Shown piece after piece: positions 6,286-56,986 of a stretch of 64,000 nucleotides of DNA. The translations under genes were made by a program, and so were the position numbers. The notes beneath the pieces are model-generated. The model was given only the letters and a program-made list of their open reading frames with translations. It was not told the DNA's origin and did not search any database. This stretch comes from a bacterium (GTDB taxonomy: Bacteria > UBA8248): the NCBI GenBank assembly GCA_022828125.1, contig JAJEJD010000012.1:1309-65308 (forward strand), read 5' to 3'. Positions within the stretch are counted from its first letter, which is position 1. Every line of letters begins with the position of its first letter.

Positions 6286-7665
6286 TCAACTCCCGTCCAG
6301 CTTCCGGTAAATGGTGCGCGTGGCGATTCCCAGGAGGCGTGCGGCGGCGCTCTTGTCGCCGCCCGTATGCCGGAGCGTCTCCAGAATGACCCGCCGCTCG
6401 ACTTCCGCGAGCGGGGTGCCGACCTCGAGATTGATGAGCGGCGAGTCCGACGCCACGGACTGCTCTCCGTTCGTGGGCTCGCCCCGGGCGATTTGCGCAG
6501 GCAAATCATCCACCGAGAGAATCTCTCCGCGGCTCAGCACCACGGCGCGTTCCACCATGTTTTCGAGTTCACGCACGTTTCCCGGCCAGTGGTAGTTCGA
6601 CATCGCATCGAGCGCCTCGCGCGAAAACGCGAGAACGGGCCGGTTGTTCTTCGCGGCGAAGCGCTGGAGGAAATGCTCGGCGAGCAGCGGAATATCGCTG
6701 CGCCTGTCCCTTAGGGCCGGCATGTGGATGGTGATCACGTTCAGGCGATAGTAGAGGTCCTCGCGAAACCTCTTATCGGCCACGGCGGTTTCCAGGTCCG
6801 CGTTGGTGGAGGCCACGATACGCGCGTCCACCTTCAAAGTCTCCGTTCCGCCGACGCGCTCGAATTCGCCCTCCTGTAAAACCCGGAGAATCTTCGGCTG
6901 CAAAACGAGGGGCATATCCCCGATTTCGTCGAGAAACAGCGTGCCCTCGTGCGCTATTTTGAAACGACCCTCCTTCCGGCCCACCGCGCCCGTGAACGCC
7001 CCGCGCTCGTAGCCGAACAGTTCACTCTCGAGGAGCGTCTCGGGAAGCGCCGCGCAGTTCACCTTCACCATCGCCTTGCCCGCCCTCTCGCTTCCCTCGT
7101 GCAGGGCGTTCGCTACCAGTTCCTTGCCCGTTCCGCTTTCGCCCAGAATAAGCACTGTTGCGGAGGTGGGCGCGACCTGGCGAACCATGTCCTTCACCCG
7201 GCGAATCGAGGAGTGGTCCCCCATCATGCCCGAAGTGTCTCTCAGGCTCTGGAGTTGCGCCCGCAAATCCGCGTTCTCGCGCAGGAGGGCCTGTTTTTCG
7301 AGCGCCTTGTCTATCGCCTTGAGGACAACCACGCGCTCCAGGGGCTTTGTGAGGAAATCATACGCCCCCTCACGCATCGCCTCGACGGCCGACTCGATGC
7401 TCCCGGCGCCGGAGATCAGGATCACTTCCGTATCCGGGCTGAGACGCTTCACCTCCTTGAGCAGACCGATGCCGTCCATCCCGGGCATTCTGAGATCGGT
7501 GATCACCAGATTTGCGGGCTCTGCGCCGAACATTTCTGCGGCAGTTTCCGCGTCGTGCGCCATCGCGACGTCAAGCCCCTCTTTGGCGATCATCTTCTGG
7601 AGGGCCTCGCGGCTGCCGCGCTTGTCGTCCACCACCAGCACGCGCGCCCCGGCATGATCGCTCAT
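6286..7665 (-). CDS. Sigma-54-dependent response regulator (NtrC family: receiver, AAA+ and Fis-type HTH domains)
   Basis: 459 aa. Receiver domain (VLVVDD...ITDLRMPGMDG). Sigma54 activator motifs GESGTGKE and GAFTGA. ESELFGYE. C-terminal HTH. Confidence 0.88.
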   Translation of the reverse strand: MSDHAGARVLVVDDKRGSREALQKMIAKEGLDVAMAHDAETAAEMFGAEPANLVITDLRMPGMDGIGLLKEVKRLSPDTEVILISGAGSIESAVEAMREGAYDFLTKPLERVVVLKAIDKALEKQALLRENADLRAQLQSLRDTSGMMGDHSSIRRVKDMVRQVAPTSATVLILGESGTGKELVANALHEGSERAGKAMVKVNCAALPETLLESELFGYERGAFTGAVGRKEGRFKIAHEGTLFLDEIGDMPLVLQPKILRVLQEGEFERVGGTETLKVDARIVASTNADLETAVADKRFREDLYYRLNVITIHMPALRDRRSDIPLLAEHFLQRFAAKNNRPVLAFSREALDAMSNYHWPGNVRELENMVERAVVLSRGEILSVDDLPAQIARGEPTNGEQSVASDSPLINLEVGTPLAEVERRVILETLRHTGGDKSAAARLLGIATRTIYRKLDGS

Positions 7666-9890
7666 GCTTTCGCCTCCTGCGCAACCGGGAGCGGGAGTTC
7701 GACGATGAACGTGGCGCCCGCGCCCTCCCTGCTCTCGAAGTGAATGCCGCCGTCGTGCTCGGTGATGATTTGCCGGCTCAACACGAGGCCGAGGCCGGTT
7801 CCGTTCGCCTTCGTCGTGAAAAACGGCGTGAACAAGGAGGCCTGCTCCTCAAGGCTGATGCCCTTGCCGCTGTCCGATATACGGATGGCGAGGTGCTGAT
7901 TCTCCAGTTCGGTTTTCACCAGGAGGCGACCGCCGTCGGGCATTGCGTCGAAACCGTTGGTGATGAGATTCTGAATCGCGACGCGCATTTGCGTTTCATC
8001 CAGGACAACCTCGGGGATATCCCTTTCGAGTTCCTTTTCGATTCGGATTTTCCTGCTCGCCGCCACATCCGCGTGCAGGTCCAGCAAATCCACGAGCATC
8101 TCGTTGCAGTCGATAGGCGTCTTCTCCAGACTGGGCATCCGCACGAATTTGAGATAATCGGCCGTCACCTGGGTGAGGATATCCACCTCCGCCCTCACGG
8201 ATTTGAGCAACGTCCATGCCTCGGCGGTGTCCGACTCCTTGAATTGGGCCAATTCATCGCCGAGCAATTCCGAGTTCAGGTTGATGGCCGAGAGGGGATT
8301 ACGTATGGAATGCGCCACCTGATCGCTCATCTTCCCGACGATCGAGAGCCTGTCGCGCTGGAGAACCTCTTTTTCGAGCGCCTTGCGCTCCGTAACGTCC
8401 TTCAAATACAAAATCACCTGGAGGGTCGCTCCCGAGGCGTCGAGAATCGGATAGGTGTAGTATTCCATATCCATCAGACGCCCATCTTCCCACGAAATCG
8501 ACTTTTCGAAAAAACCCGGCTCGCCGGTCGCGAACGTGTCGACCACGATGGAGCGTTCGACGAATGACTCCGGCACCGGGGTGAGCGGCGATATCTCCCA
8601 TTTCTGATCCAGCAAATCGGACGGTTCGCGCCCGAAGAGCCTGCCCATCGAACGATTGAGCATCCGTATGCGGAAATCCTTGTCCAGAATGCCGATGGCG
8701 TCCGTGATGCCGTCGAACAGCGCCTGAAGCCTTCTGTTGCTCTCCAGCACCTGTTCGGACCAGTGGATTCTATCCTCGGCCCTTATGCGTTTGCGCTCGC
8801 GATCGAGAATCAAAAGAGCCGCCAGAACCAGGGCGATGAACCCGAAACCCGTTAACAGCCAACCTTTTCGGAAAAGCCGTCCAATTAACCCGACGAACTC
8901 GGTGGACGGCGCGGTGAGGGCGAAAGTCCACTTCTCTTTCCCAACGGGAAAGTTGCTGAAAGCCGTCAGGTAACGCATACGTTTTTCTTTTTCCCCGGGT
9001 CTCAAGTCGAGGTGCCAGTCGAAACCATTCACTTCTTTCTTCATGCGCCCGGCGAGTTTTTCCAGTCTCTCATCCCGCAACTCGCGCGCGAGGGTGGACA
9101 ATTGAACCCCTTCCAGCCCGGGGATGCCCGGAGGAAGGATGATTCTGCTCTCACCGTCCACGAGCCACGCCCGCTCTCGACCTCCCGATTGGACGGGCTC
9201 GACGAAGGCGCGCGCCAGATCCGTCATGGAAATTTGCGCGTAGAGCCAGTCGCGCTTTCGCTGCGCCTCCTCCCCCTCGGTCTCAACCCCTCTGGGCGCC
9301 ACGGGCACCGCCGCGAACAAAGAGGAGACCCTTCGAGCCTCGTCGCGAATCACGAGAAGACAGGCGCCCTGCGTCCAGGAGCAGTTCGCCAGTTTTTCGA
9401 GGTATTCCTTGGGAATCGTGGCGATCTGCTGACCCGCTCCCTGCAAGTAGCCCAGTTCGCTCACGCGAAACCTTCCGCCCAGTCTTTCATACAGCCCCAT
9501 CATCACTGCCATTCGTCCGGGATGATCAGGCTCGATGGTGCGAAGAAACCCCGCGCTGTAGCGCAAAGACGCCGTGAGCGCCTCCAGGAACGAGGCGATC
9601 CGGTCGCCGGCCTGCTCCACGAGAAGAAGCTGGCGGCGGTTGGACCTCTCCTCGGCCTCGGCCTTGGTGTCCACGTAGAGACGATAGGAGAGAAAACTCA
9701 ATATCACCATCAAGATGAACGCCGCGCCTATCGTGCAGTACTGGAACTTCCGGTTCGCCCGGCGTGAACGGGCGATGCGCGAACGCGCCGAATCCCCGGT
9801 TTCATGGATCGTATCGTCTCGCGGCGGCGTCCGCCGCCCGAACCATCGCCTCCATATGACTCGAAAGGCTCTCGTCAACGCGTTCGGCAT
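7662..9890 (-). CDS. Sensor histidine kinase (membrane, PAS-containing) paired with the NtrC-type regulator
   Basis: 742 aa. Two hydrophobic segments. PAS-like region. H-box (MSDQVAHSIRNPLSAI). HATPase_c G-boxes (NLITNGFDAM, GTGLGL). 4-bp overlap with the downstream response regulator. Confidence 0.78.
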   Translation of the reverse strand: MPNALTRAFRVIWRRWFGRRTPPRDDTIHETGDSARSRIARSRRANRKFQYCTIGAAFILMVILSFLSYRLYVDTKAEAEERSNRRQLLLVEQAGDRIASFLEALTASLRYSAGFLRTIEPDHPGRMAVMMGLYERLGGRFRVSELGYLQGAGQQIATIPKEYLEKLANCSWTQGACLLVIRDEARRVSSLFAAVPVAPRGVETEGEEAQRKRDWLYAQISMTDLARAFVEPVQSGGRERAWLVDGESRIILPPGIPGLEGVQLSTLARELRDERLEKLAGRMKKEVNGFDWHLDLRPGEKEKRMRYLTAFSNFPVGKEKWTFALTAPSTEFVGLIGRLFRKGWLLTGFGFIALVLAALLILDRERKRIRAEDRIHWSEQVLESNRRLQALFDGITDAIGILDKDFRIRMLNRSMGRLFGREPSDLLDQKWEISPLTPVPESFVERSIVVDTFATGEPGFFEKSISWEDGRLMDMEYYTYPILDASGATLQVILYLKDVTERKALEKEVLQRDRLSIVGKMSDQVAHSIRNPLSAINLNSELLGDELAQFKESDTAEAWTLLKSVRAEVDILTQVTADYLKFVRMPSLEKTPIDCNEMLVDLLDLHADVAASRKIRIEKELERDIPEVVLDETQMRVAIQNLITNGFDAMPDGGRLLVKTELENQHLAIRISDSGKGISLEEQASLFTPFFTTKANGTGLGLVLSRQIITEHDGGIHFESREGAGATFIVELPLPVAQEAKA

Positions 9891-10031
9891 GGACTTACCT
9901 CAAAAAGCGGCCTCTTTCGCTCAGCCCCCGCGCCGGGCCCTAATCTGCCGGTTACTTATTAGGGAAAATCCATTCCCCACCCCGGCGCAGCGCCCTTGAC
10001 ACGGGGAAAATCGCCCCATATCTTGCATAAA

Positions 10032-10058
10032 TTAGCACTCCATACGCCGGAGTGCCAC
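10032..10058 (+). promoter_or_regulatory. CIRCE operator (HrcA binding site) upstream of hrcA
   Basis: TTAGCACTC-N9-GAGTGCCAC, an inverted repeat matching the CIRCE consensus TTAGCACTC-N9-GAGTGCTAA at 16 of 18 positions, about 45 bp before the hrcA ATG. Confidence 0.65.
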
Positions 10059-10102: not shown

Positions 10103-11152
10103 ATGGACGCCCTGGAACTCGCCCGGAGAAACCGGGAAATCCTGCGCGCCATCATCAACATTTTCGTGGATACGGGCGAACCCGTGGGGAGCCGCACGCT
10201 CTCGAAACATACGGACATCGCCCTGAGCCCCGCCACCATCCGCAACATCATGAGTGATCTCGCCGATGCGGGCTTCCTCACCAAACCCCACGTCTCCTCC
10301 GGCAGGCTCCCCACCGACCTGGGGTACCGCATTTTCGTCGATGATTTGATGGATTCGCACACCCTCACGAGCGAGGAGCAGGAATCCATGCGACTCGGCG
10401 CCTCCGCGCAGGCCGCGCAAATCGAACAGGTGCTCGCCCAGGCCACGCGCATACTTTCGGAACTCACCAACACCGCCGGTCTCGTGCTGCTGCCCGCAGG
10501 GGAGCAGCTCCACTTCAAGCACATCAACTTCGTGAAGATGTCGGAGGAAAAAACGCTGGCCGTCATCGTCTCCATGAGCGGGGTGGTGCAAAACCGCGTC
10601 ATCCCGACCGAGACCCCCATGAGCCAGGATGAGCTGAACAGGATTTCGAACATGCTGAACGAAGAGTTCAGCGGCCTCGCCCTGAGAGAGGTGCGCGAGA
10701 AGATCGTCCAGAAAATGGCTCACGCGAGGGAGGGCCTCGACACCCTCTACCGCCAGGCCCTGGAACTCAGCAAAGAGGCGCTCACAGAAAGCGAAGAGGC
10801 GCAGGAATCTATTTTCGTCGAGGGGGCCTCGCGCGTGTTCTCACAGCCTGATTTCGCCACTAACGCCGAAAAGCTCCAGTCCCTCTACCGCACGTTCGAG
10901 GAGAGGGAGAAGCTCGTACGCCTGCTGGACAAGTGCCTCGGCTCAGAGGACATCACCATTCTCATCGGTTCGGAGAACGATTTCGAGGAGATGAAGGATT
11001 GCAGCGTCGTCGCCCAGCGCTACTACATGGACGACCGCCCGCTGGGCAGCATCGGCATCATCGGCCCCAAGCGCATGCGCTACGATCGCGCCGTGTCGCT
11101 CGTGGAATGGACGGCGGACTCGGTGTCGAAATTCCTCTCCTCGGGAAAATAA
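10103..11152 (+). CDS. hrcA: Heat-inducible transcription repressor HrcA
   Basis: 349 aa. N-terminal winged helix (ILRAIINIFVDTGEPVGSRTLSK). HrcA-typical length and C-terminal region. Confidence 0.9.
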   Translation: MDALELARRNREILRAIINIFVDTGEPVGSRTLSKHTDIALSPATIRNIMSDLADAGFLTKPHVSSGRLPTDLGYRIFVDDLMDSHTLTSEEQESMRLGASAQAAQIEQVLAQATRILSELTNTAGLVLLPAGEQLHFKHINFVKMSEEKTLAVIVSMSGVVQNRVIPTETPMSQDELNRISNMLNEEFSGLALREVREKIVQKMAHAREGLDTLYRQALELSKEALTESEEAQESIFVEGASRVFSQPDFATNAEKLQSLYRTFEEREKLVRLLDKCLGSEDITILIGSENDFEEMKDCSVVAQRYYMDDRPLGSIGIIGPKRMRYDRAVSLVEWTADSVSKFLSSGK

Positions 11153-11269
11153 CGGGCGAACAAGCATTTTTTCGGTTTTCTGACCGGTTCGGTATTCCAG
11201 AGAAAAAAAGGTTGTGGTAGTTTCCTCCGCGCGGACGGCATCCGTCCGGATGTCCCGAATTTTCCAGGC

Positions 11270-13501
11270 TTGCTCAAGCAAGCCATCCCCCGTCGCATCG
11301 CTTCGAGCTTGCGCAAGTCGATGACCCTGGACGGGGAAGGAGCCTGCCGAAAGATGAAAATCGCCATCGTCTACAACAGGGAAAGCAAGAACGTCATCAA
11401 CCTCTTCGGGATGCCGAACCAGGAGAGGATAGGTCTCAGGACCATCCGACGCCTGGCGACCGCGCTCCGGCGCGGGGGGCACGAGGTCGTCTCCCTCGAG
11501 GGAGACAAACAGTTGATCGACCGTCTCGAGGAATTCATGCCCCGCGTCGTGGAAGGAGAGCGTCCGGGCATGGTGTTCAACGTCTCCTACGGCATTCAGG
11601 GCCAAGCCCGCTACACGCACGTGCCGAGTATTCTGGAGATGGCCGGCATTCCCTATGTCGCCTCCGGGCCGCTCGGCCACTCTCTGGCGCTCGACAAGGC
11701 GGTCGCCAAGATCATCCTGAAACAGCACGACGTCCCGACGCCCGACTTCACGATGCTTGAGGCGCCGGATTCCCCCATCTCCGACATTCGCTTCCCTCTC
11801 ATCGTCAAGCCGAAGAACGAGGCCGTGTCGTTCGGCCTCAAGGTCGTTCACGACGAATCGGAACTGAGAGAGGCCTCCAAGGTCATCTTCGACAGGTTCC
11901 GGCAAGCCGTCCTGGCCGAGCAATACATCGAGGGGCGCGAGATCAACGTCGGGCTGCTCGGAAACGACCCGCCCGAAGCGTTCCCCCCGGTCGAGCTCGA
12001 TTTCGGCGAGGGTCCGAAAATCTATACGTATGAAGACAAGACCGGAAGAAGCGAACGCACGATTTCTCACGTCTGTCCGGCTCCCCTGTCCAGCGAGCAA
12101 ACCGCTCAAGCCTGTGAGATTGCCGCACAGGCGTTCAAGGCGCTCAACCTCTACGACTGCGCCCGCGTGGACATGCGGCTGGACGATGAGGGGAATTTCT
12201 ACGTGCTGGAAGTCAATAGCCTGCCCAGCCTGGGCGAGCACGGGTCGTATCTCGTGGGCGCGAGCGCGGTGGGGCTTGATTTCGAGAAATTCGCCAACCG
12301 CCTCGTCGAGGTCGCCAGCGCGCGATACTTCGGAATGCCTGAACCCGTCTCGCTCGACGTAAGCAAGGTCGACCCGAAGAATCACGCCGTCTCCTACATC
12401 ACCCAGCGCCGAAGGCAAATCGAGACCAGCCTCAGGCAATGGGTCGGCATTCCGAGCCGCACTTCCGACCCGATAGGAATCCGCCAGGCTACGGAGCACG
12501 CGACGCGGATATTCGAAAACCTGGGCCTCAAGGAAGCGGAGGAGTTCACCGACGAACCCGAAACCATCGCCTGGGAAACGCGGGCGGGCATGGAGGGAGG
12601 CGTGCTGCTCATCGCGCAACTGGATGTCCCGCTCGATCCATCCGCCGCGCATCAACCCTTCCGGCGGACTCCCGAGCACCTGTTCGGCGAAGGCGTGGGC
12701 CGCTCGCGCGCGCCTCTCGTGATGCTCGAGTACGCGTTTCGCTCCCTGAGAAGCCTGCGGCGCTTGCGCCACCTGAAGGCCGGGGTTCTCCTGTACGCCG
12801 ACGAAGGACGAAGCGCGCGCCACAGCGCGCGATTCATCCAGGCGGCCGCCGCAAAGGCGAAGGAAGTCTTCGTCCTGCGGCCCGGCACGACCAGCGGCGG
12901 CGTCATCACCCGCAGGAACGGCGTGCGGATATTCACCCTCAACGTAACCGGAGAGAGCCTCAGCCTGAGCAGCGGCGCCCGAAGAGAACCTCCGATACGC
13001 TGGACGATGGAAAAACTCCAGGACCTCTCTCGCGTCAACTCCCCGCAGGAACGCATTGCGCTCTCGATCTTCGACGTGCGGACACAAAGACACCCGATGC
13101 GGCTCCCGCACAAGGTGGTCGCAACGCTGGTGTTGAACTACCGGGATTCGGAAAACGCCGACCGGGCAGAAGAAGAGATGCGCGACATCCTGGGGCGCAG
13201 AGGGCCGAAATGGGATCTCTCCGTGCAGTCCGCCCGGCCTCCATTCGCCGGAACCGCCGTCCAGCGGCAATTGTCCGGCTCACTCACGCGCATCGCTTCG
13301 GAACTCTCGATTCCCCTGCGGACCAAAACCTCCGCATGGCCCAGCGTGGCGGGCCTGATACCTCGCGACACCCCGTGCGTCTGCGGAGTCGGTCCGACGA
13401 CCATCGATGCGGGCACGCCCCAGGAGGCTATCGAACGTATCAGCCTGGTGCAGCGCACCCTGCTGCTCGCAACGTTTCTCGCCTCCAAAACCAAGGGTTG
13501 A
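11270..13501 (+). CDS. Fusion protein: D-alanine--D-alanine ligase-like ATP-grasp domain plus a C-terminal M20-peptidase-like domain, apparently degenerate
   Basis: 743 aa. N-terminal half has Ddl-family motifs (KIAIVYN..., EQYIEGREINVGLLGN, CARVDMRLDDEGNFYVLEVNSLPSL). C-terminal half has M20 architecture (IPSRTSD, LIAQLDVP where M20 has HxDVVP, LLYADEGRS, dimerisation-like insert, CGVGPTTIDAG). Confidence 0.55.
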   Translation: MLKQAIPRRIASSLRKSMTLDGEGACRKMKIAIVYNRESKNVINLFGMPNQERIGLRTIRRLATALRRGGHEVVSLEGDKQLIDRLEEFMPRVVEGERPGMVFNVSYGIQGQARYTHVPSILEMAGIPYVASGPLGHSLALDKAVAKIILKQHDVPTPDFTMLEAPDSPISDIRFPLIVKPKNEAVSFGLKVVHDESELREASKVIFDRFRQAVLAEQYIEGREINVGLLGNDPPEAFPPVELDFGEGPKIYTYEDKTGRSERTISHVCPAPLSSEQTAQACEIAAQAFKALNLYDCARVDMRLDDEGNFYVLEVNSLPSLGEHGSYLVGASAVGLDFEKFANRLVEVASARYFGMPEPVSLDVSKVDPKNHAVSYITQRRRQIETSLRQWVGIPSRTSDPIGIRQATEHATRIFENLGLKEAEEFTDEPETIAWETRAGMEGGVLLIAQLDVPLDPSAAHQPFRRTPEHLFGEGVGRSRAPLVMLEYAFRSLRSLRRLRHLKAGVLLYADEGRSARHSARFIQAAAAKAKEVFVLRPGTTSGGVITRRNGVRIFTLNVTGESLSLSSGARREPPIRWTMEKLQDLSRVNSPQERIALSIFDVRTQRHPMRLPHKVVATLVLNYRDSENADRAEEEMRDILGRRGPKWDLSVQSARPPFAGTAVQRQLSGSLTRIASELSIPLRTKTSAWPSVAGLIPRDTPCVCGVGPTTIDAGTPQEAIERISLVQRTLLLATFLASKTKG

Positions 13502-13507
13502 GATAAG

Positions 13508-15187
13508 ATGAACGCGAATTCCCCCAAAAAAACGACCGCCCCCAAGAAAACCTCCAGAGCAACCACACGACGCAAACCCCGGCAGGAGGTCGATTCAGAA
13601 TTCCTGGAACTGAGCGACCACCGCATCCACGAGCCGCAGCGAGTCGCGGTCGCATCTCACGGGATGATCTCCACCGCGCACCACGGCGCGACGGCCGCGG
13701 GCGTCGAGGTGATGAGCGACGGCGGCAACGCCGTCGACGCCGCCGTCGCGGCCGCATTCGCCCTGGGTGTCTGTGAGCCTGCGGCTTCGGGCCTCGGCGG
13801 GCAGACGATGATGCTCATCCACCACGCGGCCACGGGCCGCACCATCGCCCTCGACGGCTCGTCCCGCGCGCCCAACCGCGCGAACATCGAGGAATTTCGC
13901 AACCTTCGGGCTGAACGCCGACGGGGACACCGCGCCACCACCGTCCCCAGCACGCCGGCCGTTCTCGAATACGCGCTCAGGACCTACGGGAAACTCGCGC
14001 TGCCCCGCATTCTCGAGCCGTCCATCCGCCTTGCGGAAAAGGGATACGAAGTCAGCGTCCTTCAATACCGCCTCACGCGGCGTGAACTGAAGTATCTACG
14101 CGATTCCTCGGCGGCGCCGCTCTTTCTTCGCGACGCGAGAAACGCATGGCGCGCGGGCAGCACGTTCCGCCAGCCCGTACTGGCCGAAACCCTGCGGCGA
14201 CTGGCGAAGCGGGGAGTCGAAGACTTCTATCAGGGAGAAATGGCGCGCTCCATCGAAAAGGACATGGAGCGCAACGGGGGCTTCCTTCGAATGGACGACC
14301 TCTCGCAGATACCCTGGCCCGTCGAGAGGAATCCTCTTTCGGGTCGTTTTCAGGGACACCGCGTGTTCACGATGCCGCCGCCCGGCGCCGGCCGCACCCT
14401 GATCGAGATGATGAACATCTACCAGCATCTACCCAAACCCATGCAGAACATCGACAGCAAGCTCGGCGCCGTGCTGTTCGCCGAAACCATACGCCGCGCC
14501 TTTCTGGACCGGCGAGATCGCCCCTTCGACCCGAATCTCTATTCCCAGGTCACGGAGAAGACCATGCTCAGCGCCAGGTATGCGACGAGGGTGGCGCACC
14601 AGATCCGTGAGCGCATCGTCGGAAAGGGCGAGACGACGCATCTCTCGGCCATGGATCAGGAGGGGAACGTCGTGGCGCTCACGCAGTCCATCGAAAACGT
14701 CTACGGCTCATGCGAGGCGAACCCCGAGCTCGGCTTTTTGTACAACAACTACCTGAGCGCATTCGAATACACCGATATGTCCCACCCCTATTATTTGCGC
14801 CCCAACGCCGTCCCGTGGGCGAGCGTGGCCCCGACAATCGTGTTTCGTGCCGACCGCCCCTGGCTGGCCATCGGCTCGCCGGGCAGCGAAAGGATTACAT
14901 CCTCCATCCTGCAGGTGCTCATCCGGCTGGAGGGGAAGGCCGAGCCACTCGCGGCGGTGGATGCGCCGAGGCTGCATTGCTCGGTAAACGGACGTGTCTC
15001 CCTGGAAGCATCGCGTATGCGAAGCGACCTGCCCGACGCCCTGCAAAGACACGGCTTCGAAGTGAATCACCTCGAGCCCTATTCGTTCTACCTTGGCTGC
15101 GTTCAGTTGGTGATGCGCCGCGGCGAAGAACTCGTCGGAGTCGCTGACCCGCGCAGGGACGGAGCCGCAGGCGGGGTGAACGGTTGA
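13508..15187 (+). CDS. ggt: Gamma-glutamyltransferase family protein (no obvious signal peptide)
   Basis: 559 aa. GGT-family motifs include the catalytic Thr context (GETTHLSAMDQEGNVVALTQSIENVYGS). 6-bp gap after the upstream gene. Confidence 0.8.
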   Translation: MNANSPKKTTAPKKTSRATTRRKPRQEVDSEFLELSDHRIHEPQRVAVASHGMISTAHHGATAAGVEVMSDGGNAVDAAVAAAFALGVCEPAASGLGGQTMMLIHHAATGRTIALDGSSRAPNRANIEEFRNLRAERRRGHRATTVPSTPAVLEYALRTYGKLALPRILEPSIRLAEKGYEVSVLQYRLTRRELKYLRDSSAAPLFLRDARNAWRAGSTFRQPVLAETLRRLAKRGVEDFYQGEMARSIEKDMERNGGFLRMDDLSQIPWPVERNPLSGRFQGHRVFTMPPPGAGRTLIEMMNIYQHLPKPMQNIDSKLGAVLFAETIRRAFLDRRDRPFDPNLYSQVTEKTMLSARYATRVAHQIRERIVGKGETTHLSAMDQEGNVVALTQSIENVYGSCEANPELGFLYNNYLSAFEYTDMSHPYYLRPNAVPWASVAPTIVFRADRPWLAIGSPGSERITSSILQVLIRLEGKAEPLAAVDAPRLHCSVNGRVSLEASRMRSDLPDALQRHGFEVNHLEPYSFYLGCVQLVMRRGEELVGVADPRRDGAAGGVNG

Positions 15188-15888
15188 AGCTCCCGCTTCT
15201 CCTCTCCGTGCCCCACACGGGCCTTCGCATTCCACCGGAGGCCGAACCCTATTGCCGCCTTACCCCTGCCCAGGTGGCCGAAGACGGGGACGTCGGCGCC
15301 GCCGAGATATTCGACGTCAGCGAAGAAGTCGAGGCCTTGGTTTTTTCCGACGTCGCCCGGGCGATCGTTGATCTGAACCGCTCACCGACCGACCGCCGCA
15401 GGGACGGCGTCGTGAAAACCCACACCTGCTGGGAGGTTCAGGTCTACGATCCGTTTCCGCCTGAAGAAACAATCGACGCCATGCTCGAATCATACTACTT
15501 TCCTTATCACCGCCGTCTCGCAGAACTCGGGAAAAGCGGTGAATTCCCGCTCGCCATGGATTGCCATACGATGGCCGCTTTCGGCCCGCCCGTCGGTCCG
15601 GACCCCGGGCAGGAACGCCCCCAGGTGTGCCTGAGCAATGGCGAGGGCACGTGTTCCGATGAATGGATCAGCTCCCTCCAAATCGCTTTCCAGCGGCATT
15701 TCGAGGGCGACGTGACCGTCAATACCCCGTTCCGGGGAGGCTACATCACGCGCAACCATGCCGCAGAGATGCCCTGGGTCCAACTGGAAATCTCAAGAGC
15801 GCCCTTCGCGACGGATCAGGAGAAAAAGCGGCGGTTTCTGGCCGCCATCGCCGATTGGTGCGAAGAAACGACGGCAGGCGCCTGCTGA
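15184..15888 (+). CDS. N-formylglutamate amidohydrolase (FGase) family hydrolase
   Basis: 234 aa. N-terminus LLSVPHTG...IPPE and an internal DCHTM motif consistent with the FGase/zinc-carboxypeptidase-like family. 4-bp overlap with ggt. Confidence 0.5.
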   Translation: MKLPLLLSVPHTGLRIPPEAEPYCRLTPAQVAEDGDVGAAEIFDVSEEVEALVFSDVARAIVDLNRSPTDRRRDGVVKTHTCWEVQVYDPFPPEETIDAMLESYYFPYHRRLAELGKSGEFPLAMDCHTMAAFGPPVGPDPGQERPQVCLSNGEGTCSDEWISSLQIAFQRHFEGDVTVNTPFRGGYITRNHAAEMPWVQLEISRAPFATDQEKKRRFLAAIADWCEETTAGAC

Positions 15889-16017: not shown

Positions 16018-17103
16018 TTGAAGGTCGCCGACGCCCTGAAAATTCTGGGATTAGAGAGAAACCCCTCGGGGTCCCAACTCAAAAGCGCCTATAAGAAGCT
16101 GGCCCTGGAATTCCATCCGGACAGAAACCCCGGCGACCCCGAAGCCGAAAGGCGCTTCAAGCAGATCGTCATCGCCCACGAAACCCTGAAAAACCCGAAA
16201 CGCTCCGCCGACCGCGCTACCCCTCGGGGGCGGAAATCCGCGCGACAAAGAGGCGAGTACGAGGAAAAATGGGAGGACATCTTCTCCCATATCTTCCGGA
16301 GCGCGCGTGAACCGGAGGATAAGCAGAAAAGCGCACCCGGGGACTTGCACGCCCAGGTCGAAGTGACGCTTGAGGAATTGACGCGGGACTCCGAAAAAGA
16401 GGTTTCCGTATCGCGCCGCGTCCGCTGCGCCTCATGCGAGGGAAGCGGCTTTGAGGCAGGCGCGCAGAGGAGCGCCTGCCCCGCGTGCAAGGGCGCGGGC
16501 GAGGTTCGCTACAGACAAGGACTCGCGGAGTTGTGGGTTCCCTGCTCGGCTTGCGACGGGAGCGGTGAGCACACGGGCGAGGCGTGCCGGGCCTGCATGG
16601 GAGAGGGCGTCACGAGCAGGCGGGAGAACGTGATGTTGGCGATTCCCGCCGCGGCCAAAGAGGGCGCTCAGATCAAGCTCAAGGGTAAGGGCGATGAGGA
16701 CGCGCGCACCGGCGAGGCGGGAGACCTCATCGTCACGGTGCGCGCGAAGCCGCACCCCCTTTTCCAAAGAGAGGGCAACGACATCCTCCTCGACCTGCCG
16801 GTGAGCTTCTCCCAGGCCGCACTCGGTCATGAAGCCCTTATCCCCACGCTCAAGGATGCGCGGAAAATCAAGATTCCCGCGGGAATCCAGTCGGGACGGG
16901 AATTTCGCCTGAAAGGAGAAGGGCTCTCACCGGCGGGCGGGCGGAATACGGGCGACCTGCGCATCCGGGTGATCGTCGAAACGCCCACCAAGCTCAGCGA
17001 GCGCCAGCGTGAAATACTGGCCGAGTTCCAGGAAATCTCCTCGCCGTCCACGCATCCCAGAACCCGGTCATTTCTGGAGAAGATGAGAGGACTTCTCGAA
17101 TGA
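16018..17103 (+). CDS. dnaJ: DnaJ-family chaperone: J domain plus four CxxCxGxG zinc fingers plus a C-terminal substrate-binding domain. No G/F-rich linker.
   Basis: 361 aa. HPD motif (EFHPDRNP). CASCEGSG, CPACKGAG, CSACDGSG, CRACMGEG. The conserved prmA-rsmE neighbourhood downstream matches Firmicute dnaJ loci. Confidence 0.78.
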   Translation: MKVADALKILGLERNPSGSQLKSAYKKLALEFHPDRNPGDPEAERRFKQIVIAHETLKNPKRSADRATPRGRKSARQRGEYEEKWEDIFSHIFRSAREPEDKQKSAPGDLHAQVEVTLEELTRDSEKEVSVSRRVRCASCEGSGFEAGAQRSACPACKGAGEVRYRQGLAELWVPCSACDGSGEHTGEACRACMGEGVTSRRENVMLAIPAAAKEGAQIKLKGKGDEDARTGEAGDLIVTVRAKPHPLFQREGNDILLDLPVSFSQAALGHEALIPTLKDARKIKIPAGIQSGREFRLKGEGLSPAGGRNTGDLRIRVIVETPTKLSERQREILAEFQEISSPSTHPRTRSFLEKMRGLLE

Positions 17104-56685: not shown

Positions 56686-56825
56686 CAAAAAAGCCGCCCC
56701 GCGATTCGGGAGCGGCCAGAAACACCCGGATTCTTCGGCCCGCTTCCCTTCGCTGGAATTACCCAGTGCAGGTTCCAAGGGTTGCCCGCGACTCAAGGCT
56801 CTCAGTACATACACCCCTAGCAGGG
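56686..56825 (-). ncRNA. TPP (THI-box) riboswitch with an intrinsic-terminator expression platform, leader of thiS-thiG-thiE
   Basis: The minus strand reads GGGGTG...CTGAGAG...AACCCTTGGAACCTG...GGGTAATTCCAGCGAAGGGAAG, matching the THI-element conserved blocks. It is followed by hairpin GCCGCTCCCGAATCGCGGGGCGGC plus TTTTTTG, directly 5' of thiS. Confidence 0.75.
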
Positions 56826-56986
56826 ACTTGCTCCAAAGAGCATATACGGATGCGCCCCGACTTGCAACGTCCGAAAGGAGGCGGCGTGTGCAATTCGCAC
56901 CTTTTTCAGGTATGAATACGGAAAACCACACGATATCGCCGGGTTCAATGAGCCTCGCGCATCCCCATCGACCGAGGAGCACCCCC

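Follow-up and report, generated by a model that had tools for sequence, protein, structure and literature searches.

Here, a three-gene cassette was characterized on the forward strand of a 64,000-nt stretch of bacterial DNA (contig JAJEJD010000012.1 of assembly GCA_022828125.1, lineage UBA8248), and this whole stretch is called the window below. The cassette encodes a Ddl-related ATP-grasp ligase fused to an M20-like pseudo-peptidase domain, a leaderless gamma-glutamyltransferase (GGT) with a remodelled donor pocket, and a hydrolase of the N-formylglutamate amidohydrolase (FGase) family. The three genes form one self-contained, horizontally mobile unit, whose architecture, residue states, conservation and synteny were observed directly. 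The cassette may build and dismantle a small cytoplasmic glutamate-type amide or oligopeptide under stress, a reading to which we give slightly less than even chances. ATP-grasp amidoligases encoded with peptidases are a known kind of system, and what is new is the combination of a Ddl-clade ligase, a pseudo-M20 fusion, a remodelled leaderless GGT and an FGase.

The initial annotation of the window had listed three open reading frames (ORFs) in this region. All of them were present, and Pfam supported the ligase, the GGT and the FGase. The ORF of the fusion ligase extends from 11270 to 13501 when started at a TTG codon, and on that basis it had been described as a protein of 743 aa. However, every homologue begins with MK[IV]A[IV]VYNR, which is equivalent to a start at ATG 11354, and thus the 743-aa ORF is likely over-extended. 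The likely gene (11354–13501) encodes 715 aa, and its ATG is preceded by GGAAGGAG at 11335–11342. The fusion itself stood: more than 1900 full-length homologues were found, which indicated that it is not an assembly artefact. The best 120 of these homologues were all ~716 aa long and had 99–100% query coverage and 59–64% identity. One twin of the protein, from a metagenome, was 99% identical. Automatic annotations name the fusion protein 'D-alanine-D-alanine ligase'.

The ligase domain, assigned by Pfam, NCBIfam, PDB matches and fold, comprises residues 1–327 (11354–12334). The domain with the M20/CPG2 fold, including the lid/dimerisation subdomain, was assigned by phmmer, family profile and fold and comprises residues 328–715 and the stop codon (12335–13501). 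The GGT-family Ntn hydrolase of 559 aa (13508–15187) and the FGase-family (PF05013) amidohydrolase of 234 aa with a TTG start (15184–15888) follow on the same strand. The codon of the GGT nucleophile, Thr376, is located at 14633–14635. The ligase stop codon (13499–13501) lies six bases ahead of the GGT ATG at 13508, and the FGase TTG at 15184 overlaps the GGT stop (15185–15187) by 4 nt. The three genes are thus tightly, translationally coupled.

For the genome scan, one genome per species was used, and the locus statistics were taken from the best 80 of at least 289 fusion loci. At least 289 species-level genomes encoded the fusion. The complete ligase-GGT-FGase triad was found in 68 of the 80 loci, and its order and strand were identical in 62 of these 68. 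Eight of the 12 incomplete loci were cut by contig ends, so the triad was complete in 68 of the 72 loci with enough sequence. This adjacency is far beyond chance, and the dedicated three-gene unit proposed in the initial annotation was recovered as the same neighbourhood in other genomes. The hosts included Acidobacteriota, Acidimicrobiia (many of them metagenome-assembled genomes (MAGs) of sponge symbionts), Phycisphaerae and other Planctomycetota, Alphaproteobacteria (Rhodospirillales and Paracoccaceae), Aminicenantes, Cloacimonadota and Eisenbacteria. The lineage of the window was nearest to Tectomicrobia/Nitrospinota according to its methionyl-tRNA synthetase (67–68% identity). The fusion proteins shared 54–65% identity across these host phyla, which indicated horizontal spread.

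A conserved fourth gene was sought by clustering. Only spurious alternative-frame ORFs were obtained, and the flanks differed between lineages. When the two genes next downstream were profiled with Pfam in 62 loci, no family occurred in more than 11 of them, and those 11 (Amidohydro_1) came from one closely related lineage. The synteny with hrcA and dnaJ seen in the window was not conserved outside its own lineage. Neither the curated families of Pfam, NCBIfam and PADLOC nor the solved structures or the papers of the searched literature yielded a description of the fusion or the triad. A role in anti-phage defence was considered and rejected, as there were no PADLOC matches.

The ligase domain shares with the Ddl/VanA group the three-domain ATP-grasp fold and all nucleotide and Mg2+ ligands. 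Pfam Dala_Dala_lig_C matched at 5e-37 (residues 150–347 of the 743-aa ORF). The best matches in the PDB were DdlA and DdlB of Pseudomonas aeruginosa (DdlA 8evx at 3e-33), and the fold had a TM score of ~0.7 to Ddl structures. Residues K115, K152, E189, K229, R271, D273, E286 and N288 were invariant in an alignment of 18 sequences, and the ATP/Mg2+ set of Ddl (K97, K144, K215, R255, D257, E270 and N272 in E. coli DdlB) was found in full. All ATP/Mg ligands being kept, the description of this part as a complete D-Ala-D-Ala-ligase-type ATP-grasp domain was borne out.

However, the ligase differs from the Ddl/VanA group in its scores, its substrate loops and its fusion to the M20-like domain. It was below all Ddl/Van NCBIfam cut-offs; the best was NF002378 with 176.8 bits against a cut-off of 243, and TIGR01205 gave 156.7 against 245.65. 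The N-terminal 'GG.S.E.EVS' loop of Ddl was replaced by an invariant 'NR.S..VIN.FG..N.E.IG', and the 'HG..GEDG' loop by an invariant 'YGIQGQARYTH.PS.LE'. In the omega loop K-Y became K-T, in which Ddl Tyr216 is exchanged for Thr with a 2-residue insertion, and 'PGMT..S' became 'PSLGEHGSY'. The D-Ala binding loops (Glu15, His63/GEDG, Ser150, Tyr216 and Ser281-Leu282) were thus not kept, the equivalences in the N-terminal part being approximate. Since the ATP/Mg ligands are intact, the scores are below the cut-offs and the D-Ala loops are replaced, the ligase is predicted to be an active member of a distinct Ddl-related ATP-grasp clade.

A domain scan of the fusion, as proposed in the initial annotation, matched the ATP-grasp part, and the M20 half required a family profile and a fold search. 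Pfam gave no match for the C-terminal half alone (residues 356–743 of the ORF) even at E=10, and some homologues had a weak precomputed match to PF01546. With phmmer, the single sequence matched carboxypeptidase CPG2 (1cg2) at E=0.026, while the family profile matched CPG2 at 6.8e-6 and DapE at 0.01. Foldseek aligned the domain with CPG2 (6xj5 and 1cg2) at E ~1e-17 and TM 0.74–0.75 over ~400 columns including the lid domain, and PahZ2 also matched by fold. The domain therefore has the two-domain M20 fold (catalytic plus lid), but it has neither the five metal ligands nor a PF01546 match at the gathering score.

The metal site was aligned to stand-alone M20 relatives with intact sites (P0203, P0206 and P0207), which matched at about 1e-27. 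The first His was H in 9 of 13 family members and N in three, and it was Q in this protein. The Asp of HxD and the general-base (catalytic) Glu were kept in the family and in this protein. The bridging Asp was R, T, S or a gap in the family and R here; the adjacent ligand Glu, the second Glu of DEE, was an invariant Gly, and the next ligand Glu was an invariant Arg. The last His was G, A, S or R in the family and G here. In total, four of the five zinc ligands were lost throughout the family and all five in this protein. Because the di-zinc site is lost, the domain should not be a metallopeptidase, and di-zinc peptidase activity is excluded as far as residues can tell. The initial annotation had taken the sequence QLDVP at the usual HxD position as the sign of this loss. 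That is correct for this protein, but it is a lineage-specific change, since 9 of 13 relatives keep the His; the loss of peptidase activity is supported by the four other ligand positions and not by the change from His to Gln.

Ser-Arg, Arg-Pro-Gly and RRG.R motifs were conserved in the M20-like domain, and invariant Ser-Arg, Gly and Arg occupied the former ligand positions. Because these motifs are conserved, the domain would have kept a different function, probably in binding and dimerisation. The binding or scaffold role suggested for it earlier is thus reasonable, as a di-zinc centre cannot be bound after the loss of the ligands. The domain shares the two-domain fold, the HxD Asp and the general-base Glu with CPG2 and the other M20 metallopeptidases, including DapE and PahZ2; it differs from them in the loss of ligands, in the new invariant residues and in its occurrence only as a C-terminal fusion.

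The GGT matched Pfam G_glu_transpept (PF01019) at 1e-117 (394 bits), and its best matches in the PDB were the enzymes of Bacillus licheniformis (4y23, 5e-63) and E. coli (2e0w, 1e-61). It shares the Ntn fold, the nucleophile Thr and the Gly of the oxyanion loop with bacterial GGTs, class IV cephalosporin acylases and the intracellular GGTs of thermophiles. The self-processing nucleophile Thr376 aligned with T391 of E. coli and T399 of B. licheniformis. However, the residues that bind the alpha-amino group of the donor were replaced: E. coli Asn411 by E396, Gln430 by Y415 and Asp433 by A418. The Tyr and Ala were conserved in 69 of 69 cassette orthologues. Further changes in the pocket were S462-S463 to A-S (PLSSM to PWASV) and G484 to Ser. 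The changes at Gln430, Asp433, S462-S463, G484 and Arg114 are shared by all 69 orthologues, with the motifs 'LGFLYNNY.SAFEY', 'VPWASVAPT' and 'GSPGSERI'. The cassette GGT therefore differs from bacterial GGTs at Q430/E442 (Tyr), D433/D445 (Ala), PLSSM, G484 and Arg114, and its score for TIGR00066 was 338.2 bits against a cut-off of 357.85.

In characterised GGTs, Asp433/Asp445 contacts the alpha-amino group of the donor, and the D445A mutant lost transpeptidation while hydrolysis was left (PMC8062742). The D433N mutant and the triple mutant E423Y/E442Q/D445N acquired glutaryl-amide (cephalosporin) acylase activity (PMC8062742). The natural pocket resembles these engineered mutants, and so the enzyme looks like a hydrolase of glutaryl or N-acylated gamma-glutamyl amides. 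The replaced alpha-amino-binding residues argue against free gamma-glutamyl peptides, such as glutathione, as substrates. The initial annotation needs revision on this point, since this GGT departs from the canonical type.

No hydrophobic stretch was found at the N-terminus of any of the 69 orthologues, and the N-terminus was basic, in agreement with the earlier remark that this GGT has no leader. The maximal 12-residue Kyte-Doolittle mean had a median of 0.14 over the 69 orthologues, compared with 2.06 in a paralogue that bears a signal peptide. Leaderless, intracellular GGTs are known from thermophiles (PMC8062742). On residues and N-terminus together, the cassette GGT is predicted to be a cytoplasmic hydrolase for a glutaryl-like, N-blocked or internal gamma-glutamyl amide.

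Two further observations concern the GGT genes. A second, diverged GGT paralogue (38–43% identity) was present in loci L041 (9872–13118) and L050 (9178–12403). In contrast to the cassette GGT, the L050 paralogue clearly bears a signal peptide. The closest relative of the window, ENA ERZ23491296 scaffold_409 (L081), had 97.4% DNA identity and the same context of hrcA, cassette and dnaJ. In this contig, the GGT was called as two ORFs of 451 and 89 aa (12188–13864), with small compensating indels near window position 14931–14939. This split could be a sequencing error or the beginning of gene decay.

The third protein matched Pfam FGase (PF05013) at 7e-40 (137.8 bits). Its single sequence found nothing in the PDB by phmmer and a profile was needed; the family profile matched the Ralstonia N-formylglutamate amidohydrolase 2q7s at 1e-9. 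Residues H11, D63, N65, R66, H128, E202 and R205 were invariant in the cassette FGases. The Pfam family and the core of His, Asp, Asn-Arg and His are shared with HutG. In comparison, the cassette enzyme is shorter (234 aa), scored only 62.7 bits for the HutG equivalog TIGR02017 (cut-off 278.75) and stands outside a hut operon, no hut genes being found in the conserved cassette neighbourhood.

The window showed a stress-related context around the cassette, which the initial annotation had missed together with the wide horizontal distribution. The heat-shock repressor gene hrcA (10103–11152, forward; PF01628 on the 99%-identical contig L081) lies immediately upstream, and a gene for a dnaJ-type chaperone (16018–17103, forward; PF00226, PF01556 and PF00684) lies directly downstream. 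A pattern search detected one repeat like the controlling inverted repeat of chaperone expression (CIRCE), the HrcA operator, with the form TTAGCACTC-N9-GAGTGCCAC at 10032–10058 on the forward strand. It had two mismatches, and 0.01 such matches were expected by chance. Ahead of it, a sigma-70-like promoter was recognised by eye on the forward strand (9996–10024), with TTGACA at 9996–10001, a 17-nt spacer and TATCTT at 10019–10024. It is possible that this promoter drives the whole unit from hrcA through the cassette to dnaJ. The search for intrinsic terminators gave none within or ahead of the cassette, nor between the CIRCE element and the cassette, and in the spacer between hrcA and the ligase gene no intrinsic terminator or structured element was evident (z = -1.4). 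Because the cassette sits between hrcA and the dnaJ-type gene, it may be heat-shock regulated in the lineage of the window. A PAS/HisKA sensor kinase and a sigma-54-dependent response regulator (6286–9890, reverse; domains identified on contig L081) are encoded directly upstream of hrcA and are divergently transcribed.

In other lineages the neighbours were different. An MscS-type channel was encoded within 7 kb of the cassette in 10 of the 80 loci, and directly adjacent in nine. These small MscS genes recurred in L001, L013, L018, L026, L030, L041, L059, L064, L072 and L073, which belong to Acidobacteriota, Acidimicrobiia, Rhodospirillales and Aminicenantes. The Mg2+ transporter MgtE was found near the cassette in 8 of 80 loci, with recurring genes in L024, L025, L032, L048 and L060. 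Among the 10 same-strand neighbours scanned upstream, Usp, TerB and PP2C proteins occurred. The CIRCE/hrcA-dnaJ context here, together with the MscS and MgtE neighbours elsewhere, suggests that the product of the cassette is linked to stress, in osmotic or heat adaptation.

The M20-like profile also found more diverged fusions of ~710–730 aa, called clade B, in which the metal sites were degenerate in different ways. A GGT was located directly downstream in three of four clade B contigs, and in one of them (L084) an FGase as well. Rhizobial symbiosis plasmids encoded a stand-alone ATP-grasp protein that was 41–45% identical to residues 1–327. On plasmid pBb323S2b of Bradyrhizobium barranii (L090, 4282–9047), a four-gene operon among insertion sequence (IS) elements comprised, in this order, a KamA-family radical-SAM aminomutase, a leaderless GGT, a PF14402 (7TM_transglut) seven-transmembrane (7TM) protein with a weak match to RloB, and the stand-alone ATP-grasp (45% identity). 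This GGT was 41% identical to that of the window and had the same NNY pocket without Asp433. The complete operon was seen only in Bradyrhizobium, and the copies in NGR234 and R. jaguaris were isolated among IS elements. Because both the clade B and the rhizobial ligases accompany a GGT, the partnership of this ATP-grasp clade with this GGT subtype is old, as judged by these homologies.

Other partners of the deeper relatives were peptide ligases, trimming enzymes and amino-acid modification enzymes. In an Acidobacteriota MAG (CAVROO010000023.1; L029, 9550–13649), the fusion ligase was followed by a MATCAP/QEGLA protein (TIGR02421) instead of GGT and FGase, and the locus continued with a GshB/RimK-like ATP-grasp and a different FGase homologue. 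In CP199719.1 (L088, 8001–10681), an intermediate fusion homologue (P0160) was followed by a RimJ/RimL-type GNAT (Acetyltransf_3) without GGT or FGase. On pNGR234a of Sinorhizobium fredii NGR234 (L089, 8001–11083), the stand-alone ATP-grasp adjoined a CapA/PGA_cap protein. The best NCBIfam match of that protein was the lasso-peptide C-terminal epimerase MslH, which hints at peptide chemistry with D-residues. A GT4 glycosyltransferase was encoded immediately upstream of clade B fusions in two contigs, L082 (1–591) and L084 (5217–13560). In L084, the triad was followed by a 281-aa protein of unknown function and by formimidoyltransferase-cyclodeaminase (FTCD), a glutamate/folate-linked enzyme.

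The closest characterised relatives of the three hydrolase-fold modules all have glutamate conjugates as substrates: CPG2 cuts off a Glu at the C-terminus, GGT splits gamma-Glu amides, and N-formyl-Glu is deformylated by FGase. On this ground glutamate is proposed as the common theme of the cassette. Its substrates, the sequence in which its enzymes act and its role in the cell are inferred. The ATP-grasp domain, following the chemistry of its family, would phosphorylate a carboxylate and couple an amine via the acyl-phosphate intermediate to form an amide bond. The dead M20 domain, which keeps its lid domain and has new invariant Arg and Ser residues, would most likely dimerise the enzyme and hold an anionic substrate, primer or product that resembles a C-terminal glutamate. 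The cytoplasmic GGT would then hydrolyse a gamma-glutamyl/glutaryl-type amide whose alpha-amine is acylated or absent, and the FGase-like zinc amidohydrolase would deacylate the resulting N-acyl-glutamate-type product.

Such a logic of making and trimming has precedents, and the cassette has a ligase and hydrolases conserved as an operon. The dipeptide-osmolyte system of N-acetylglutaminylglutamine amide (NAGGN) consists of the ATP-grasp Ngg and an M42 peptidase. The cassette shares its ligase-plus-hydrolase logic, with GGT and FGase in place of M42. In P. aeruginosa, RloABC comprises the ATP-grasp RloC, the 7TM inactive transglutaminase RloB and the protease RloA (PMC12239564). It controls hypo-osmotic tolerance, and the loss of the ligase rescues the loss of the proteases (PMC12239564). 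RloABC was the only experimentally studied system of similar logic that was found. Like RimK/RimB and RloABC, the cassette encodes a cytoplasmic ATP-grasp ligase with hydrolases that would undo or trim the product, and its rhizobial relative likewise pairs with a PF14402 7TM protein. However, it differs from both in the clade of its ligase, which is Ddl-like and not RimK-like, in its hydrolases, with GGT and FGase in place of a retropepsin, and in the pseudo-M20 fusion. Glutathionylspermidine and trypanothione synthetase-amidases are also ATP-grasp enzymes fused to a hydrolase-fold domain, which acts on the same class of amide (PMC2427367). In the cassette, by contrast, the fused domain is degenerate and hydrolysis is supplied by two separate genes.

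Several points weigh against the proposal of a glutamate-type amide made and dismantled under stress. The functions of all cassette members are inferred from homology, and the choice of glutamate as the substrate depends solely on how the families of the closest relatives are named. Arg114, which binds the alpha-carboxylate in E. coli GGT, aligned with Ser, with an Arg two residues later, which leaves it uncertain whether the GGT substrate is 'glutamyl' at all. The structures nearest to the ligase belong to D-Ala-D-Ala ligases, and its substrates might equally well be D-amino acids. The AlphaFold2 model of the fusion was moderate (pLDDT 72, pTM 0.49), and it was poor exactly in the family-specific loops (residues 10–26 and 78–113). 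Four loci with room for the genes lacked one or both hydrolases. Regarding stress, co-transcription of the cassette with hrcA is only putative. MscS and MgtE occurred in only ~10–12% of loci, which are phylogenetically non-independent, and the background for them was estimated from typical genome copy numbers.

Here, other explanations were weighed on the same evidence. The fusion could be a novel type of non-ribosomal poly- or oligo-amino-acid synthetase. In it the inactive CPG2-like domain, like the anchoring domain that cyanophycin synthetase has, would keep hold of a growing glutamate-type (e.g., gamma-linked) chain by its anionic C-terminus, and the Ddl-like domain would lengthen this chain. 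GGT and FGase would then be dedicated endo- and exo-depolymerases, and the product a novel intracellular polyanionic stress or storage compound, its pool coupled to MscS-type release valves and Mg2+ uptake; we consider this version unlikely. Salvage of peptidoglycan-derived or other D-amino-acid peptides appears similarly doubtful. There, the GGT would cleave the gamma-D-Glu-diamino-acid bond of L-Ala-gamma-D-Glu-X, in which the alpha-amine is acylated, the FGase would cleave N-acyl-Glu, and the ligase would re-make a D-aminoacyl dipeptide. The Ddl enzymes as nearest structures, a GGT pocket without an alpha-amine binder that fits N-acylated D-Glu, and the MslH-like CapA/PGA_cap neighbour of the stand-alone ligase in NGR234 agree with it; but the ligase is below every Ddl/Van cut-off with the Ddl signature loops replaced, and genes for Mpl, LdcA, AmpG or peptide transporters are not conserved in the neighbourhood. 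The tailing of proteins or peptides, in the manner of RimK or tubulin ligases, was given comparably little weight. In that case the ligase would add residues to a protein or ribosomal peptide at its acidic C-terminus, with the dead M20 domain as the docking site for the target and with GGT and FGase as the enzymes that trim the tail. Ddl-clade ATP-grasp enzymes and GGTs are small-molecule enzymes, however, and no conserved target gene or precursor peptide was found in or beside the cassette. These facts speak against tailing despite the combination in L029 of the ligase with MATCAP/QEGLA (a C-terminal carboxypeptidase family), a GshB/RimK-like ATP-grasp and an FGase, the RimJ/RimL-type GNAT after the diverged fusion in L088, and the PF14402 7TM protein that accompanies the rhizobial version as in Rlo.

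The patchy, horizontally spread distribution, with many sponge-symbiont MAGs among the matches, would also suit a pathway in which an environmental compound of the N-acyl/gamma-glutamyl or glutaryl type, for example from sponge or soil, is broken down or detoxified with the help of ATP. The ligase would activate or conjugate this compound and the two hydrolases would release glutamate, which fits the presence of two hydrolases against one ligase and of an Amidohydro_1 gene downstream in 11 loci. However, all Amidohydro_1 neighbours came from that single lineage, and the cassette does not carry along a transporter, a regulator or any additional catabolic gene, which makes this explanation rather improbable. 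The classical gamma-glutamyl cycle is built from members of the ATP-grasp, GGT and M20 families. A cytoplasmic version of that cycle for glutathione or a related thiol would consist of a GshB-like ligase, the GGT and an M20 domain like a Cys-Gly dipeptidase, and the GT4 upstream of clade B (L082 and L084) and a GNAT in L084 recall the logic of mycothiol and bacillithiol. Since the GGT lacks the residues that would bind glutathione by its free alpha-amine, the M20 domain is devoid of a metal site and the cassette does not include a gamma-Glu-Cys ligase, such a cycle is very unlikely. Finally, the automatic label 'D-alanine-D-alanine ligase' on the first protein would fit the chance adjacency of an ordinary ddl paralogue, ggt and hutG. 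The synteny analysis already contradicts this, because the genes have the same order in 62 loci from different phyla; in addition, all three proteins are below their equivalog cut-offs and the subfamily-specific residue changes are conserved, so chance adjacency is extremely improbable. The glutamate-type amide or oligopeptide that is made and dismantled under stress thus remained the reading we tentatively prefer.

Some other features were noted in the window. An ORF of 775 aa runs antisense to the ligase gene (10943–13270, reverse), and several alternative-frame ORFs of 100–350 aa occur near the cassette; clustering showed them to be shadows of real genes only. These long antisense ORFs are probably not genes but shadow ORFs typical of high-GC DNA. 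A thiamine pyrophosphate (TPP) riboswitch (RF00059) was detected at 56728–56828 on the reverse strand with 56.3 bits, above the gathering score.

The carriers of the cassette come from at least six phyla, numerous sponge symbionts and Acidobacteriota from soil among them, and the current labels of its proteins, 'D-alanine--D-alanine ligase', 'gamma-glutamyltransferase' and 'N-formylglutamate amidohydrolase', are misleading. With its three genes the cassette is a compact, experimentally tractable starting point for the study of an amide or peptide metabolite that is probably new. It also represents a natural case of a pseudo-peptidase recruited as the partner domain of a ligase, and a natural GGT variant, with a pocket like that of engineered glutaryl-amide acylases, that is of biocatalytic interest. 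If the link to stress is true, the solutes and polymers that serve bacteria in osmo- and thermo-adaptation would gain a new member.

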